Shown piece after piece: positions 7,771 to 54,639 of a DNA stretch of 64,000 nucleotides. Numbering within the stretch: the first letter of the stretch is position 1; each line of letters starts with the position of its first letter. The position numbers and the translations under genes were made by a program. Location of the stretch: the NCBI RefSeq assembly GCF_058153355.1, contig NZ_CM177019.1; one strand, written 5' to 3'. Below the pieces are notes generated by a model. That model worked only from the letters and a program-made list of their open reading frames with translations. It had not been told where the DNA came from and searched no databases.

Positions 7771-9357
7771 TTAATGCTCGCGAGTCTGGTGGAACTGAAC
7801 GTCCGGATAACGTTCCTGCGCCAGGCGCAGGTTGACCATGCTGGTAGCGATGTAAGCGAGGTTATCGCCGCCATCAAGCGCCAGTTGGCTTTCGTTCTTA
7901 CGCTTGAACTCTTCGAATTTCTTCGCGTCCGCACATTCTACCCAGCGTGCAGTGGCAACGTTGACTGACTCATACACTGCTTCAACGTTGTATTCGCTCT
8001 TCAGGCGCGCTACCACCACATCAAACTGCAGCACACCAACCGCACCAACGATCAGGTCGTTGTTGGAGATCGGACGGAACACCTGCACCGCGCCCTCTTC
8101 GGAAAGCTGTACCAGCCCTTTGAGCAGCTGTTTTTGCTTCAGCGGATCTTTCAGGCGGATACGACGGAACAGTTCCGGCGCAAAGTTCGGAATACCGGTG
8201 AACTTCATCATCTCCCCCTGGGTAAAGGTGTCGCCGATCTGAATAGTGCCGTGGTTGTGCAGACCAAGGATGTCGCCCGGATACGCTTCCTCAACATGCG
8301 AACGGTCGCCCGCCATAAAGGTCAGCGCGTCGGAGATCACCACATCTTTCGCGGTGCGCACCTGGCGCAGCTTCATGCCTTTTTCATATTTACCGGATAC
8401 CACGCGCATAAACGCCACGCGGTCGCGGTGTTTCGGGTCCATGTTGGCCTGAATTTTAAATACGAAGCCGGTAAATTTATCTTCGCTCGCCTCTACGGTA
8501 CGGGTATCAGTCTGACGCGGCATCGGCGCAGGTGCCCACTCTACCAGGCCATCCAGCATATGATCGACGCCGAAGTTACCCAGCGCAGTACCAAAGAACA
8601 CTGGAGTAATTTCGCCCGCAAGGAACAATTCTTTGTCGAACTCGTTAGACGCGCCTTTCACCAGTTCCAGTTCGTCACGCAGCTGCTGTGCCAGATCTTC
8701 ACCAACCGCAGCATCGAGATCCGGGTTATTCAGCCCTTTAACAATACGGACTTCCTGAATGGTGTGACCTTTACCGCTCTGATAGAGATAGGTTTCGTCT
8801 TTATAAAGGTGGTAAACGCCTTTAAACAGCTTGCCGCAGCCAATCGGCCAGGTGATCGGCGCACAGCCGATTTTCAGCTCGTTCTCAACTTCATCGAGCA
8901 GCTCCATCGGGTCGCGGATATCACGGTCAAGTTTGTTCATAAAGGTGAGGATCGGCGTGTCGCGCAGACGGGTAACTTCCATCAGCTTGCGGGTACGATC
9001 TTCAACACCTTTTGCGGCGTCGATAACCATCAGGCAGCAGTCCACCGCCGTCAGAGTACGATAGGTATCTTCCGAGAAGTCTTCGTGCCCCGGGGTGTCG
9101 AGCAGGTTAACCAGGCAGTCGTGATACGGAAACTGCATCACAGACGTAGTAATGGAGATCCCACGCTGCTTTTCCATCTCCATCCAGTCCGACTTAGCGT
9201 GCTGGTTGGAACCACGGCCTTTTACTGTACCGGCAGTCTGAATGGCCTGTCCGAACAGCAGCACCTTCTCGGTGATGGTCGTTTTACCGGCGTCCGGGTG
9301 AGAAATAATTGCAAAGGTTCTTCTTTTCGCTACCTCTGCGGCCAAAAGGCTTGTCAT
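7771..9357 (-). CDS. prfC: peptide chain release factor 3 (hybrid: first ~16-21 codons supplied by the prophage)
   Basis: GTPase motifs [20 protein letters not shown] and NKLD; start ATG at 9355-9357 reads [15 protein letters not shown], whereas the displaced host version [16 protein letters not shown] is found at 48839..48913. Confidence 0.9.
9296..9309. repeat. prophage attL core (14-bp identity ATTATTTCTCACCC on the prfC coding strand)
   Basis: Identical 14-mer at 48848..48861; flanking prfC-homologous sequence diverges on one side and phage/host sequence on the other. Confidence 0.7.
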
Positions 9358-21254: not shown

Positions 21255-22730
21255 CTAAAGACGGAACTGGTTAACCACGGCAAAGACACGCAACTGGTTA
21301 ACATAGTCAGGCGGGAACAGCGTGTTCAGGCGGTTCGGATCGCTGGCATCACGCTCCACAACCAGGTACTGCTTAAACAGTTCGTAGTTTTCCACGATCC
21401 CCGCACGCTCAAGCTGACGGTAGGTTGCCAGCAGTTCCCCTTTGATCACCGCCGGGGTGACAATCGCCTGACCGGGACCAAAGCGGGTACCGTCACTGGC
21501 AAGCTTGTGACGCCCGTACTTACTGGTAATGACGGATTTCAGTTTGCGCAGTACATACGCGCTGGTATGCAGCGTCTCACTGTCGAGGTAGCTGTTATCC
21601 GCAACCCCGTAAGCGTTTTTCCTGTACGTGGTGACATCACGCTGAATGCGCAGTACCCCACTTTCGACATACGCCGTTGCCACGCCATGAGACAGCAGGG
21701 TCTGTTGCTCGGTCATCGTGAACCGTTTCCCCTTCGGTGCAGGCAGCATACCCACCAGCTCACCGGTCTGCGTGGGACGTGCCGGATCGTTGCGAATAAA
21801 CACCGCTGCGCGGGCGGTACGGCTTGCCGCCAGCTCGTCGGCTGGCGTCTGAGTGTCTTTTTCGTATCCCGCCAGGGTAATGTGCTGCTGGTTAAACTGG
21901 TCACCTGCGGTCACCAGTTCTGACAGCGTGCCGATCTTTGCCGTATACACATGACCATACAGCTGACGCGCATAGCTCCAGCGACCGCTGGTATCGTTCA
22001 TCTCGGTCACCAGCGTGTTAACGGAGGCCGTGTCGTTGAACGGCAAGCCAATATAATCAAACGGCTCATCCGCCATTGCAGCCACCGCGCCGGTGAGAAC
22101 CGGAGCGCCCGTTCCGGCGCTCCCCGTCGCCACGGCAATCTGTACGCCCGCTGGCAGCACTTCGCCCCCACCAAAGCCGTAGTAATTGAGGCTGACAGGA
22201 ATTTCATTCCCGCAAAGCCCCTTATGACGCGCGGTCAGTGTGACCACGCCTGCCGAAGATGAGGCCGTAAACGGCAGGGCCGGAACGGCATTGATGGCAT
22301 CTTTGATACTGCTGGCAATCGTCGTGACGTTATCGCCGTTGGTCACCGGTGCCTGCACGCGGGTACGTCCCACATAAACATTCACCGTGCCGGTTTCGGT
22401 TGCTGCTCCGGTCACCGTCAGCGTAACCGTTGCCGCCGCGCCTGTGGCTTCCGGAACGGCAATCACATACAGCTCGCCAAACGGGTCGGTCTGGCGATAA
22501 GCCTCGACCATACGCGCCAGCTGACTTCCCACACCACAAATCTGGCGTGCATAGTCTGCCGACGGCATCAGCACCAGACTGTTGGCAACAATCTCTGCAC
22601 CGTTATTGGCGTGACCAATCAGCAACGATGCCCCGCTGTCCTGTGCAGTATTCGCCGCCGAGTTATCCATTTCCGCATAAAACAGCGGAACCAGCGTATT
22701 CGACGGAATGGTGTTAAAGCTTATCGTCAT
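21255..22730 (-). CDS. contractile tail sheath protein
   Basis: 491 aa; size and position typical of myovirus sheath. Confidence 0.8.
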   Translation of the reverse strand: MTISFNTIPSNTLVPLFYAEMDNSAANTAQDSGASLLIGHANNGAEIVANSLVLMPSADYARQICGVGSQLARMVEAYRQTDPFGELYVIAVPEATGAAATVTLTVTGAATETGTVNVYVGRTRVQAPVTNGDNVTTIASSIKDAINAVPALPFTASSSAGVVTLTARHKGLCGNEIPVSLNYYGFGGGEVLPAGVQIAVATGSAGTGAPVLTGAVAAMADEPFDYIGLPFNDTASVNTLVTEMNDTSGRWSYARQLYGHVYTAKIGTLSELVTAGDQFNQQHITLAGYEKDTQTPADELAASRTARAAVFIRNDPARPTQTGELVGMLPAPKGKRFTMTEQQTLLSHGVATAYVESGVLRIQRDVTTYRKNAYGVADNSYLDSETLHTSAYVLRKLKSVITSKYGRHKLASDGTRFGPGQAIVTPAVIKGELLATYRQLERAGIVENYELFKQYLVVERDASDPNRLNTLFPPDYVNQLRVFAVVNQFRL

Positions 22731-27846: not shown

Positions 27847-27967
27847 CCACCAGCAGTAAACCGCCGGACAGCATCAGAGCCGGAGCCATACCAAACTGCA
27901 GGTAAAACCCGCACGCAAGCAGGCCAAAACCAGCCAGCCCGATAACATCAGCAATTAGTGATTTCAT
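27806..27967 (-). CDS. small hydrophobic protein translationally coupled to the terminase (not in ORF track)
   Basis: 53 codons [53 protein letters not shown]; its ATG overlaps the terminase TGA. Confidence 0.35.
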
Positions 27968-29697
27968 AGAATTAAGAGAGCATCGTCCGGATCAAGAGAT
28001 GAGAGGAAATCGTCGGGTTCTTTGAGCATTGCCCGACCGATCGCCATAATCAGTGCAACCGCACCATCGATTTTGTTTTCCGCCTGCTCCTTGACAGGCT
28101 TCACCACATCATCGTTACCCGGAATAGTTTTGCCGACCACGTTGCCGATACACCAGGTCATGATGGGATTGCCGTCATGATGAAAGCGCCCCGATTCAAT
28201 CGCCGCTTCCAGCTCTTTCATCGGATCGGACATGTTGGTGTAGTTCTGAATGATGGTGATGGGGTTCAGGTCTTCATCAGCAAGGTCATGCGACAGCCCG
28301 GTCGCCCCGAAGGGGTCGATGGGTGACTCACTGACCGGGCTGATTTTGTTCGCCGCTTTGGCCTCCTCGAGGATGTAGCGATAATCCACCTCCGCACCAG
28401 CGGTAACAGTCAGAACGCCCATTTCCACCCATTTCTGAAAGCGTTCGGCTGTCCGGCGATCTTCATTTTTCTCGACGCTGTACACCGTGTCATACGGTAC
28501 CCAGAAACGCGGAGCCACACTGTAGTAATGCGTTTTACCGTCAATCTCGCGGGTATAAAGTCGCGCCATGCTGTTCATATCCAGCTTACGCGCCAGGTCA
28601 AAGGCCAGAATGCACGGCTGCCCCTCGAACTGCTCAAGGGACAGTGATTTATCCTCGCAGCTCTGCCAGCTCACCAGGTTGAAATACGCCGAACGCGCCG
28701 ACACCCAGATATTGAGGTGTTTTGTTTTAAAGACGTTTGCCAGACGGGCGTTATTTTTCGCACGCTGCTGCTGACTTAACAAAAATTCGCGATAAACCGA
28801 CACGCCAATATTCGGGTTAGCTTTTTCCAGCACCTGCGGGTCGGTCCAGTCATCGCCTTCGTCAACGGTATAGATGATCCCGAACAATTCATCGTTGGGT
28901 ACCGACCCGTTGAGCATCTCGATAACTTCCCGCCGCTTGTCGTAGCACGGCCCCTCAATGTTGTACCCGGCGGTGGTGATGGCCCACATCAGTGGCTGAC
29001 GTCGCGCCCCCATCCCGGTAAGCATCGTGGTATAAAGCGCATCGGTGGCGTGCTCGTGATATTCATCCACGACGGCACAGTGGGGTGATGAACCATCACC
29101 GGGGTTACCGATCAGCGGTTCAAACCGCGCGCCATCCTCCGGACGGTTCATGTTTGAGGCGTTAACCTCAATCCCGAACGCTTCCGTCAGCATGGGTGTG
29201 CGTTTACACATCAGTCGAGCCGGGCGAAAGACTTCCCACGCCTGTTTCTCTGTCGTGGCACCGGAATACACTTCCGCGCCAAACTCGTTATCACAGGCAA
29301 AACAATACAGGGCAACACCGGCAGAGATTGCCGATTTGCCGTTCTTACGGGGGATTTCGGTATACACCTCCCTGAAGCGGCGCAGCCGGGAGCCTTTATT
29401 GACCCAGCCAAACGCACAGCAGATCACAAAGAGCTGCCACGGTTCCAGCGTGATGGGCATCCTCTTGAATGCCCACTCCCCCTTGGTGTGTGGCAACAGC
29501 TGAATAAATTTCGCGGCCCGTTCAGCCAGGTCCTTGTCGAAGCGGTAACGAAACGACTTACTTTTTTCCGCCATCAGGTCATCAAGATGGCGCTGGCAGG
29601 CCTGAATCACAAACTGGCAGGCCACAATCTTTCCGCGCACGACATCACGGGCATACTGATTGGCAGCATTTACGTTGGGGTAAGATTTCCGGCTCAT
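27964..29697 (-). CDS. terminase large subunit
   Basis: 577 aa; ATPase/nuclease size and position; overlaps the small subunit gene. Confidence 0.85.
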
Positions 29698-30197
29698 GAT
29701 TCGATGATTTTCAGAAACGGGTTAGTGGCTTTCTTCTGCCCCGCCAGGCCAATCAGACGCTGGCGGCTGCTGGGGTCGAGTCCGAGCATTGCCCCCGTGC
29801 TGCTCATCTCGGACTCCTGTTCTTTTTTGGCTGTCAGCTCCGGATTTTTGACCCTGCCGCCCATTGCGCCGGTGATGGTGTTGCCCTGTATGGCAATATT
29901 TTTCACGGCACGTCGCCAGAACTCATAGGCCACGCACCACCGCTCAAGCACCGCGAGGTCAGTCACGCACAGCAGGCCCTGACCGCAGAGTTCTTTGGTT
30001 GTCAGTTGCCACATGATCGTGGCGAGAGTGAGATCTTCTTCAGCGAACCACTCCGGTGGCTCAACACCTTTGATGGGCGTAAAAACAGGTTCATCTTTGT
30101 TCAGGGCTCGCTTGCCGGGGTTTCCGGCCAGCGCCTTGCGCGCCGTTGGCTTGGGGCGACGCCCGGAACGCCCCGCCGTTCCAGCCATATGCGGCAC
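29694..30197 (-). CDS. terminase small subunit (P27-family-like)
   Basis: 167 aa, basic N-terminus; precedes the large subunit. Confidence 0.7.
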
Positions 30198-30313
30198 TCC
30201 TGGTTAAATTTCATTTTTCGCGGGTATAAAAAAACGATGGGGCGGGCAGTCCGGAAGACGTCAGGTCACAGAGATTTGACCCGCCCCTCCCCTCAGACAG
30301 TTGAGAATTATTA

Positions 30314-30664
30314 TCACTTAAGTCGTTCACGGGCCGTCTTCGCCTTATGACACGGCCAGCACAGACTCTGCAGATTACAGTCGGCATCAGTGCCGCCATG
30401 CGCTTTAGGGATGATGTGGTCAACGGTTTTCGCCTCACGCACCACACCAGCACGCAGACATAACTGACACAGGCCTTTGTCACGCTTCAGGACACGCGCG
30501 CGGATACTGTCCCACTTCGAACCATAGCCGCGCTGATGACGGGACTGACCTGGCTTGTATTGCTTCCAGCCTTCACTTTTGTGGCTTTCGCAATAGCCTG
30601 ACGGGTCAGTGGTTGTAGAGCTGCAGCCGCGAATACGGCAGGCCTTTGGGATTCGTGGTGGCAT
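30314..30664 (-). CDS. HNH endonuclease (terminase-associated)
   Basis: 116 aa with CQLCLRAG...DHIIPKAHGGTD...CWPCHKAK (HNH with zinc-binding Cys pairs); sits upstream of the terminase genes as in HK97-type phages. Confidence 0.85.
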   Translation of the reverse strand: MPPRIPKACRIRGCSSTTTDPSGYCESHKSEGWKQYKPGQSRHQRGYGSKWDSIRARVLKRDKGLCQLCLRAGVVREAKTVDHIIPKAHGGTDADCNLQSLCWPCHKAKTARERLK

Positions 30665-30689
30665 TTATCAATCTCCACTCAATTCCTTT

Positions 30690-31214
30690 CTACTTCGTCA
30701 TCATTTTACTAAGTTCCTGAGGAGTCAATTCCCATGTAATAAACCGAGAAGACTCCAAAACATCATCTTCTCCGAGCAAGTATTTACGTATATTCTTCAT
30801 GAAGACCCTATAATCTGGGGCATCATTCTTGTGCGACAGAATTTTAGACAATTCCGTTGCTAGATCAGCTGGTAACCATAAAAAAGCCTCATTTGTTAAT
30901 TGTCTTAATCTTTTTCTGTCATAGGGATTTGTCATCCATTCAGACATAAGCTCGGCAATTAATGCCGACTTCATTCTTATCTCATGTTGCCTTTTTTGCT
31001 TATCCAGAATAACAGTGTTTGCTGTTTTTATTGTTTCAAGCATAACATCGTATTCATGCTTGACTGCATTCTGCACAGTGCTTTGTAGCCAAGTTCTCCC
31101 AATAAAAAACATTAAAGGGAGTATTACAACCCAAGCGATTACATTTGCTATCCAACCAGCGTCCATATCTATCCTCATGAAAATAAAAATGATTAACACA
31201 CAAGCTGTTAGCAT
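30690..31214 (-). CDS. hypothetical membrane-anchored protein, AT-rich cargo gene
   Basis: 174 aa; two N-terminal hydrophobic helices followed by a charged soluble domain; clearly lower GC than neighbours; no family recognised. Confidence 0.6.
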   Translation of the reverse strand: MLTACVLIIFIFMRIDMDAGWIANVIAWVVILPLMFFIGRTWLQSTVQNAVKHEYDVMLETIKTANTVILDKQKRQHEIRMKSALIAELMSEWMTNPYDRKRLRQLTNEAFLWLPADLATELSKILSHKNDAPDYRVFMKNIRKYLLGEDDVLESSRFITWELTPQELSKMMTK

Positions 31215-31225
31215 ATAACATTATT

Positions 31226-31483
31226 TCAATGATTACTTCTTTTGCTTTCTATTTTGCGGATTGCAACTTTATCTTGATTACATTGATTTAATGCTGATAA
31301 CAAATTCACATTCAAATCAAGACTTGCACCATACGTCAGTGGGTTGGGTATAAACGGTACAGGAGTATCAGAAGTCAAGCTGACTGGTAGTGGTGTCTTC
31401 GGAATGCTCACGTAAACTGTTCGCGTACTTCCGCAACCTGTCAGCAGCGGCAGCAGGTACAGGACGGGCAGCACAATCATCAT
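31226..31483 (-). CDS. o-spanin Rz1 (outer-membrane lipoprotein), embedded in the Rz gene in another frame
   Basis: MMIVLPVLYLLPLLTGC lipobox; Pro-rich mature part; lies within/overlapping 31368..31760. Confidence 0.65.
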   Translation of the reverse strand: MMIVLPVLYLLPLLTGCGSTRTVYVSIPKTPLPVSLTSDTPVPFIPNPLTYGASLDLNVNLLSALNQCNQDKVAIRKIESKRSNH

Positions 31484-47394: not shown

Positions 47395-48618
47395 TCAGTT
47401 TGAATCAGAGATAGTACAATTAACAATCGATTCAACCCTCTTCCACCATGCCAGGTAAGCTTTACGCTGTTCTTCTAGATAATCGCTCTTATCATAAACT
47501 TGCCATACCCCTGGCAGCTTATGACCAAGCATAATTTCTGCGATATGAGGCGCAGTAAGATCAGAAAAATTTGTTCGAGCTGTACGTCTCAAGTCATGAA
47601 GAGACCAATGAGGGAATTGATATCCTAAACACCGCCATGCGTACTGCATTAAATTGTAAGGCAGCGACTGCAATGATGTCCGACCAACGGGTTCCCTGCT
47701 TCCTTCCTTAGTAAAAAGCATATCGGAACCATTGTTCATAGAGATAGCGTACTTTATAAGCTCTTCAACCGGTTCAATAATGGGCCGCTTTAGCGGTTCG
47801 CCTGTTATCTCCCCTGTCTTATGTCGTTCTGGTGGTACAGTCCATACTTTATTAATGAAATCAAAATCGTCCACCCGGGCGGTAATTAGCTCTGAACTAC
47901 GGCAACCAAAATGCAGCAATAGTTTAATGAAGGCCCGGTATTTAGGAACCATTCGAGAACCATCGATCGCAGCATAAAGGATTTTAATTTCATCATGTGT
48001 CAGAAACCGTTTCTTCTGACCTTTACGGATATCCATATCTTTACCCGTGATATCCGACAGCGGGCGAGTTTCAATGAGCTTTCTCTTATACGCCCAGACA
48101 TGGGCCTGCTTTGCGTTAATTAGCAATCGGTCTGCTATTGCTGGAGTCTTAGTGCTAAGAGGCTCCAGGACTTCTAACCAATCATGCAATGTAGCTGCAT
48201 CGTGAGGGATATTCCCGATTTTAGAGAACAGGTGCAGCTCAAACGAGCGAAGTATCTGTTCAGAACCTTTTTTATTTTTTACACAATATGCTTCATACCA
48301 AGCACGGATCACAGACTCTACCGTCATGGCTTCAGTAGCTTTTCGTTTTTCAGCCTGCTTGACCAATCGTGGATTACGGTTTGACTCGAGTTCACCACGA
48401 AGACGGATAACTTCTTCTCTGGCCTCTTTTAATCCAGTTGCCGGGTAAGTTCCGATATCAAGACGCTCACCTTTCCCTGCCCATTGATAACGATATTGGA
48501 ACACTACGCGACCTTTCGGTGATACTCTGACAGACAGACCATCACGATCGGATTTAACCAAAACCTTATCACGTTCCTTTCCAACGACTGAACGCAACCA
48601 CGCATCAGACAGCGCCAT
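47395..48618 (-). CDS. tyrosine integrase (P4-type)
   Basis: 407 aa; C-terminal catalytic region with HDLRRTARTNF and a downstream Tyr; adjacent to attR and the arm-type sites. Confidence 0.9.
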   Translation of the reverse strand: MALSDAWLRSVVGKERDKVLVKSDRDGLSVRVSPKGRVVFQYRYQWAGKGERLDIGTYPATGLKEAREEVIRLRGELESNRNPRLVKQAEKRKATEAMTVESVIRAWYEAYCVKNKKGSEQILRSFELHLFSKIGNIPHDAATLHDWLEVLEPLSTKTPAIADRLLINAKQAHVWAYKRKLIETRPLSDITGKDMDIRKGQKKRFLTHDEIKILYAAIDGSRMVPKYRAFIKLLLHFGCRSSELITARVDDFDFINKVWTVPPERHKTGEITGEPLKRPIIEPVEELIKYAISMNNGSDMLFTKEGSREPVGRTSLQSLPYNLMQYAWRCLGYQFPHWSLHDLRRTARTNFSDLTAPHIAEIMLGHKLPGVWQVYDKSDYLEEQRKAYLAWWKRVESIVNCTISDSN

Positions 48619-48838: not shown

Positions 48839-48913
48839 TTAATTATTGGGGTGAGAAATAATGGCAAAAGTGCGGCGCTTCGCCACCTCTTGCAAATAAG
48901 GAGACAACGTCAT
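48839..48913 (-). pseudogene. prfC: orphaned original 5' end of prfC (24 codons) displaced by prophage integration
   Basis: Minus strand reads ATG ACG TTG TCT CCT TAT TTG CAA GAG GTG GCG AAG CGC CGC ACT TTT GCC ATT ATT TCT CAC CCC AAT AAT TAA = [24 protein letters not shown]. Confidence 0.85.
48848..48861. repeat. prophage attR core (ATTATTTCTCACCC)
   Basis: Identical to 9296..9309. Confidence 0.7.
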
Positions 48914-54317: not shown

Positions 54318-54404
54318 GCGAAGGTGGCGGAATTGGTAGACGCGCTAGCTTCAGGTGTTAGTGTCCTTACGGACGTGGGGGTTCAAGTCCCCCCCCTCGC
54401 ACCA
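54318..54404 (+). tRNA. leuQ: tRNA-Leu (anticodon CAG), copy 1
   Basis: 87-nt sequence GCGAAGGTGGCGGAATTGGTAGACGCGCTAGCTTCAGGTGTTAGTGTCCTTACGGACGTGGGGGTTCAAGTCCCCCCCCTCGCACCA, matching E. coli tRNA-Leu1 with encoded CCA. Confidence 0.95.
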
Positions 54405-54432
54405 AAAACCACGTTGATATTGCTCGCACTGG

Positions 54433-54519
54433 GCGAAGGTGGCGGAATTGGTAGACGCGCTAGCTTCAGGTGTTAGTGTTCTTACGGACGTGGGGGTTCA
54501 AGTCCCCCCCCTCGCACCA
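54433..54519 (+). tRNA. leuP: tRNA-Leu (CAG), copy 2 (one C to T difference in the variable arm)
   Basis: Same 87-nt sequence except GTGTTCTTACGG instead of GTGTCCTTACGG. Confidence 0.95.
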
Positions 54520-54552
54520 AACGAGGCGATATCAAAAAAGTAAGATGACTGT

Positions 54553-54639
54553 GCGAAGGTGGCGGAATTGGTAGACGCGCTAGCTTCAGGTGTTAGTGTC
54601 CTTACGGACGTGGGGGTTCAAGTCCCCCCCCTCGCACCA
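54553..54639 (+). tRNA. leuV: tRNA-Leu (CAG), copy 3
   Basis: Identical to copy 1. Confidence 0.95.

Follow-up and report, generated by a model that had tools for sequence, protein, structure and literature searches.

The segment 30196–30297, read on the minus strand of the 64,000-nucleotide stretch of DNA analysed here (the window), is very probably the cos site of a temperate phage of the SfV/SfI/phiP27 type, which has an HK97-like head and packaging module and resides as a prophage in E. coli. The assignment comes from sequence comparison. As in the SfV/SfI/phiP27 group, the segment is situated between the genes for an HNH endonuclease and the small terminase (terS), contains the mapped 10-nucleotide sequence YGCCCGCCCC in the form TGCCCGCCCC (30248–30239), and has the flanking blocks, with a T-tract and ACCCGCGAAA downstream, at fixed distances from it. 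It also shows what is found at HNH-dependent cos sites of the HK97 type, namely a gp2-like large terminase, a gp74-like HNH protein, and homologous cos DNA with the same cut column. A sequence-only reading had placed a candidate cos site between the HNH gene and terS, and this proposal is borne out by the match to the 10-mer mapped in SfI, to the annotated cos-site of phiP27, and to the genome ends of HK97 and EPP-1.

The feature is an already known, ordinary cos site. Mapping in SfI and annotation in phiP27 had already covered this sequence, so no new cos biology is involved. For this prophage, the assignment would place the origin and direction of packaging (cut at 30239–30248, proceeding towards lower coordinates), which is of use for annotation, for predicting the genes at the virion ends, and for the interpretation of read pile-ups.

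The prophage and its packaging genes

The genes around the gap are transcribed from the minus strand in the order HNH, gap, terS, the large terminase gene TerL, portal, and S78 (HK97-type) prohead protease. The HNH, TerS and TerL genes are all full length. The gene context had been described correctly in the earlier reading: Pfam recognizes the HNH domain at 30664–30314 and Terminase_4 at 30188–29694, both on the minus strand. The HNH protein also matches the HNH family phrog_144 (E 2e-44) and the HNH endonuclease of PDB entry 5h0m (E 3e-12). The features of the region, in the order of transcription, are listed below together with what each rests on.

30314–30664, minus strand: HNH endonuclease gene, 116 aa, packaging accessory nuclease (Pfam PF01844, E 5e-15)
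30280–30294, minus strand: G-run GAGGGGAGGGGCGGG, conserved upstream cos element, which includes the distal arm GGGGCGGG (30287–30280) of an inverted repeat (44 diverse loci)
30273–30279, minus strand: TCAAATC motif directly after the G-run (most loci and HK97)
30253–30272, minus strand: spacer of fixed length and variable sequence, whose version in the window has the palindromes GACGTC and TCCGGA (low information content, no consensus structure)
30249–30252, minus strand: tetranucleotide GGAC directly upstream of the 10-mer, with the predicted nick in the other strand at its 3' side (conservation)
30239–30248, minus strand: predicted cohesive-end 10-mer TGCCCGCCCC, cosN equivalent, which includes the proximal repeat arm CCCGCCCC (identical to the gap mapped in SfI)
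30226–30238, minus strand: ATCGTTTTTTTAT, predicted to begin the packaged DNA at its left end, with the T-tract TTTTTAT (TTTTTAT nearly invariant in the alignment)
30204–30225, minus strand: ACCCGCGAAAAATGAAATTTAA, cosB equivalent where the small terminase is predicted to bind, at +14 to +35 relative to the inferred cut (conservation)
30197–30203, minus strand: Shine-Dalgarno region CCAGGAG of terS (read from the sequence; AGGAG is 8 nt before the ATG)
29694–30188, minus strand: small terminase gene terS, 164 aa, P27 family (Terminase_4, PF05119, E 4e-20)
27964–29697, minus strand: large terminase gene TerL, 577 aa, with ATPase and nuclease domains (PF03354, PF20441)

The list of open reading frames starts terS at GTG 30197, whereas the start annotated in SfV, SfI and SfIV corresponds to ATG 30188. 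The latter is likely the correct one, and with it the gap between the HNH gene and terS becomes 30189–30313 (125 nt).

The prophage spans about 39.5 kb, from approximately 9.3 to 48.9 kb of the window, inside an E. coli chromosome; the genomes of the SfV type are 37–41.5 kb long. The host flanks are 98–99% identical to the E. coli chromosome; one of them contains prfC/yjjI/deoA and the other opgB/rsmC/fhuF. An integrase ORF (47395–48618, minus strand) is situated at the right end of the prophage. The 14-bp direct repeat GGGTGAGAAATAAT, present at 9296–9309 and 48849–48862, brackets the element, with prfC to the left and the integrase to the right, and its two copies probably are the att core sites. 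The window prophage thus adjoins prfC, whereas SfI integrates at thrW. Three tandem tRNA-Leu(CAG) genes (54318–54639) are found in the right-hand host flank. As judged from an annotated E. coli prophage collinear with it, the element encodes a Mu-like tail, an HK97-like head, lysis functions, the Q antiterminator and a repressor region. The interpretation of the element as a cf-PICI satellite was dropped, as it is a 39.5-kb prophage with tail genes.

One difference from the Sf phages is a low-GC (31–38%) insertion of about 640 bp upstream of the HNH gene. It is located at 30665–31305, between the Rz/Rz1 lysis genes and the HNH gene, and neither SfV nor E. coli GZ2408P has it at this location. 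The product of its ORF (30690–31214, minus strand), 174 aa long and hydrophobic at the N-terminus, has no match in Pfam, PHROG or PADLOC. The homologues of this protein form only 37 clusters, all of them annotated as hypothetical, and the named sources are almost all Enterobacterales. The insertion looks like a moron.

The probable 10-nt cohesive-end sequence

In SfI, the termini of DNA from free particles were sequenced directly and compared with the prophage, which gave a 10-nt gap, 5'-TGCCCGCCCC-3', and the authors concluded that SfI, like SfV, is packaged by the cos mechanism rather than by headful (PMC3636060). The window holds this 10-mer exactly, at the aligned position. A literature search for the cos sequence produced the SfI paper as the only match in a relevant context. 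In SfI, SfV, SfII, SfIV and ST64B, the cos site has the same location, between the HNH gene and a P27-family terS, the TerS start is identical and the HNH is the same. The cos regions of SfI, SfII, SfIV and ST64B are near-identical to that of the window, and the gap differs from that of SfV in one of the 125 aligned positions, with full identity over the stretch that begins at the G-run and reaches the terS start.

The Stx2e phage phiP27 encodes TerS of the same Pfam family as that of the window. Its record (NC_003356, misc_feature 21806–21815) has a "cos-site" annotated on CGCCCGCCCC, which occupies the same alignment columns as the window 10-mer. The architecture and spacing are the same, and phiP27 has each of the blocks (G-run, TCAAATC and ACCCGCGAAA). 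The DNA identity with the window, however, is about 77%, the 10-mer begins with C in phiP27 and with T in the window, and the A/T-rich part of the downstream block is different (AAATTAAAAATTT). For the cos mapping in SfV and phiP27, the sources were the GenBank features and what the SfI paper says about it.

Two further phages have record ends at this site. The linear record of EPP-1, an Edwardsiella phage isolated by plaque assay, ends with ...GTACTGCCCGCCTC, exactly at the aligned 10-mer. The HK97 record ends with ...GACCGCCGCCAAA and restarts with GTTTGAATTTAACGCTAACCCGATTTTTTTAG; in the DNA profile alignment (see below), the physical right end of HK97 is aligned with 30239, the last base of the 10-mer. 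On the other hand, the GenBank records of SfV and SfIV are opened at a point 7 nt upstream of the 10-mer, between GACGTCT and TCCGGAC. This linearization point disagrees with the ends of SfI, HK97 and EPP-1, and the SfV record may follow a convention that differs from the true ends.

HK97 has an HNH-dependent terminase system (PMC9410871, PMC11331095), and its cohesive ends are 10-nt 3' overhangs (PMC9410871, legend to figure 1; PMC11331095). The length is given inconsistently in PMC9410871, as 10 nt in the figure legend and 12 nt in the discussion, while the ends of the HK97 record and PMC11331095 agree on 10 nt. The predicted 10-nt cohesive ends of the window prophage most probably are 3'-protruding as well, because of the homology with HK97, and because the run-off sequencing of SfI produced a gap and not an overlap, as recessed 5' ends would give.

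Assuming that the prophage follows its relatives, induction and replication would be followed by staggered nicking by TerS, TerL and the HNH protein on either side of TGCCCGCCCC (30248–30239). Packaging would then run from 30238 towards lower coordinates, with terS entering first, up to the next cos site. The site would be formed by three parts at fixed spacing, the G-run with TCAAATC (30294–30273), GGAC with the 10-mer (30252–30239), and the T-tract with ACCCGCGAAAAATGAAATTTAA (30238–30204).

Conserved blocks and the inverted repeat

To find relatives, we used a similarity search in phage genomes, joined the record ends of the matches, and aligned them. The region is common to the Shigella phages SfV, SfI, SfII and SfIV and the Salmonella phage ST64B, and several of the records begin or end inside it. 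The first search for loci, in viral contigs, yielded only TerS that were 98–99% identical. As these copies are too close for the analysis of covariation, a TerS profile search with one genome per species was performed. It yielded 47 loci from the Enterobacterales (including Edwardsiella, Serratia, Citrobacter, Xenorhabdus, Photorhabdus, Providencia, Morganella and Gilliamella) and Comamonadaceae, with the TerS identity down to 47–50%.

The regions upstream of terS from 44 diverse loci, anchored at a single motif, form a near-gapless alignment, with at most one gap column in the core. It features three conserved blocks at fixed spacing: the G-run with TCAAATC; GGAC or GTAC with the first half of the 10-mer (30252–30245); and the T-tract with ACCCGCGAAAAATGAAATTTAA. 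Variation is seen in the spacer of 20 nt and immediately past the cut. The tetranucleotide preceding the 10-mer is GGAC in 31 of 46 loci and GTAC in 11, and HK97 has GAC. The DNA profile constructed from 43 relatives, with the window left out, has one significant match in the 64-kb window, at 30297–30196 (E = 1.5e-29), and it also matches the end-to-start junction of HK97 (E 3e-8). The 105-bp cos core is present in 1,117 of 5,426 complete E. coli genomes. In addition, an E. coli-type cos region and TerS 97% identical to that of the window are found in JAEWTL010000102.1, which is titled "Bacillota bacterium MAG" and probably is a mis-binned enterobacterial contig.

The GC-rich inverted elements pointed out in the sequence-only reading do exist, although the coordinates given there, about 30250 to 30295, are shifted by approximately 10 nt. 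They form a perfect 8-bp inverted repeat, GGGGCGGG at 30239–30246 and CCCGCCCC at 30280–30287 on the plus strand, whose arms are 33 nt apart. The repeat as such is no better than chance: when the gap was shuffled 2000 times with its dinucleotides preserved, 138 of the shuffles (6.9%) contained a perfect repeat of at least 8 bp, and the inverted repeat was on these grounds rejected as a significant feature. The fold of the whole gap is no better than that of its shuffles (z = -0.91). In 44 distinct loci, pairing is observed in 72.2% of cells (8 pairs), compared to 73.7% when the 3' letters are shuffled among the sequences, and 462 of 500 arm shuffles pair at least as much as the real loci; every measure of arm covariation in these loci is at or below the shuffled mean. 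RNAalifold applied to the relatives produces no consensus structure (-0.23 kcal/mol), and no Rfam family matches the gap. At the same time, each arm taken separately, and the region as a whole, are conserved far above chance. The proximal arm is the cohesive end itself, as the 10-mer mapped in SfI falls at 30248–30239. In lineages with other 10-mers (CGCCGCCTCA, CGCCACCTTG, CGCCCCCCTA), many loci retain the G-run of the GGGGCGGG type, which no longer pairs. Since the G-rich element and the C-rich cut site are conserved independently, the repeat is a by-product of the two and neither a structure nor a matched pair.

Three other explanations of the gap were considered. The arms could be a matched pair marking cos, whose symmetry itself is the signal, as half-sites of one symmetric protein complex or as a cruciform. 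Indeed, the arms are perfect in the window, in the SfV-type phages and in phiP27, and both lie within conserved blocks at the fixed spacing of 33 nt. However, the complementarity within a locus does not exceed that between loci, the relatives with altered 10-mers keep a non-matching G-run, HK97 combines G10 upstream with CGCCGCCAAA at the cut, and 6.9% of shuffles give an 8-bp repeat by chance; this explanation is improbable. The repeat followed by a run of T could also be a Rho-independent terminator of the lysis/HNH transcript, with the sense strand having the stem GGGGCGGG/CCCGCCCC, ATCG and TTTTTTT. The 8-bp GC stem on the minus strand is indeed followed, 4 nt later, by seven T, and is contained in the minimum-free-energy fold of the gap. 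Still, the loop is 33 nt long, the terminator scan made no call, and HK97 lacks the repeat; neither the fold z-score, nor the arm covariation in the 44 loci, nor the consensus folding, nor Rfam agrees with a structured RNA. Moreover, a lambdoid late transcript has to cross cos in order to reach the head genes. Given the long loop, the negative scan, and the lack of covariation and of a consensus structure, we rejected the RNA interpretation, including the terminator, as highly improbable.

Finally, packaging could be of the headful (pac) type, or cos could be located elsewhere, so that the gap would be only a regulatory or translation-initiation region of terS. One of the conserved blocks in the window is situated just upstream of the terS ribosome-binding site, as would be expected in this case. 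Several observations contradict it. SfI, with a near-identical TerS start and cos region, has defined ends here and is not a headful phage (PMC3636060). The genome ends of HK97 and EPP-1 fall at the aligned site, the promoter scan of the gap called no promoter-like site, and the conserved block follows the 10-mer, not the start codon. Between the 10-mer and the ACCCGCGAAAAATGAAATTTAA block there are 13 nt in every case, but anything from 11 to 82 nt separates the block from the terS ATG; a constant distance to the 10-mer and a variable one to the gene start fit the cos function and argue against a translation signal. We consider the chances of this explanation to be nearly negligible and retain the cos site. 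Prophages of Xenorhabdus, Photorhabdus, Providencia and Morganella have an insertion of 43–82 nt between the ACCCGCGAAAAATGAAATTTAA block and the terS start and preserve the 13-nt distance to the cut.

Terminase recognition and comparison with HK97 and lambda

The large terminase of the prophage is similar to gp2 of HK97 over the whole length (BLASTP, 25% identity over about 520 residues, E 2e-29). The HNH protein is similar to gp74 (BLASTP, E 1e-10), and its gene is directly upstream of cos and terS; the HNH gene of HK97 is 319 nt from the genome end, and that of the window is 65 nt from the 10-mer. TerS is a different case. No sequence similarity between TerS and HK97 gp1 was found by BLASTP or by hhalign, with either 13 or 110 sequences, and phmmer against the PDB sequences showed no homology to gp1, which is outside PF05119. 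The likeness of TerS to gp1 was found at the level of the fold only.

The upstream half of the HK97 cos site is homologous to that of the window: it has the G-run, TCAAATC at the same spacing, GAC and a C-rich 10-mer. The HK97 10-mer is CGCCGCCAAA, and the upstream run is G10, hence HK97 does not have the inverted repeat formed in the window by the G-run and the 10-mer. The TCAAATC motif of HK97 (ATCAAATC) is at an equal distance from the cut. Downstream, ACCCG is 4 nt further from the cut in HK97 than in the window, and the combination of ACCCG and an A/T-tract resembles the mapped HK97 TerS site.

The HK97 TerS nonamer binds 15 bp at positions +15 to +29 from the cut, reading the C:G pair at +21 and the adjacent A-tract (PMC11331095). 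Stalling of the motor at cos requires TerS, and gp74 stimulates cleavage, yielding the 10-nt 3' overhangs (PMC11331095; PMC9410871). The window contains, at +11 to +25, the highly conserved TATACCCGCGAAAAA, which resembles HK97 CTAACCCGATTTTTT at +15 to +29. The ACCCGCGAAAAATGAAATTTAA block is the most conserved one in the alignment, retained even in the Comamonadaceae loci with TerS just 48–50% identical. Based on this conservation and on the comparison with HK97, we infer that the block is a putative TerS binding site. As the sequences of TerS and gp1 are unlike, the transfer of the HK97 binding-site model relies on the likeness of the folds and on the short DNA motif. The R7-S8 pair at the N-terminus of HK97 gp1 reappears in the window TerS, and the latter has nearly invariant S141-R142 close to the C-terminus, where gp1 has S127-R128. 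These residues may correspond to those of gp1, the pairs having been matched without backing from an alignment.

The lambda cos site lies between the lysis and terminase genes and consists of a nicking site, a small-terminase binding region downstream of it, beside the small-terminase gene, and a termination element upstream. The window site shares this general layout (cosQ, cosN, cosB). However, lambda has 12-nt 5' overhangs, lacks an HNH protein, and uses TerS of the Nu1 type together with R sites and IHF, whereas TerS of the window belongs to PF05119 and has no match to the Nu1 family, and its relatives have 10-nt ends. No sequence similarity between the window cos site and that of lambda was seen. 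Hence the site does not belong to the lambda type.

The upstream block deserves a separate comment. The G-run has high column conservation in the 44 diverse loci and is present in HK97 too. Together with TCAAATC, it occurs at fixed spacing in HK97, in enterobacterial phages of the P27 type and in Comamonadaceae prophages, whatever the type of TerS. The HK97 studies PMC11331095 and PMC9410871 confine their description to the TerS site, which is downstream of the cut. As a tentative suggestion, to which we would give somewhat less than even odds, the G-run and TCAAATC (30294–30273) could be a separate functional subsite of the HNH-dependent cos, serving either as a termination signal like cosQ or as a place where TerL or the HNH protein docks. 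The three-block cos common with HK97 despite the unrelated TerS sequences, together with the upstream G-run element, may be of interest to those who study packaging of the HK97 type. The spacer between TCAAATC and GGAC often contains small lineage-specific palindromes, such as GGCGATCGCC in Rosenbergiella and AGGGC-CTT-GCCCT in Kosakonia.
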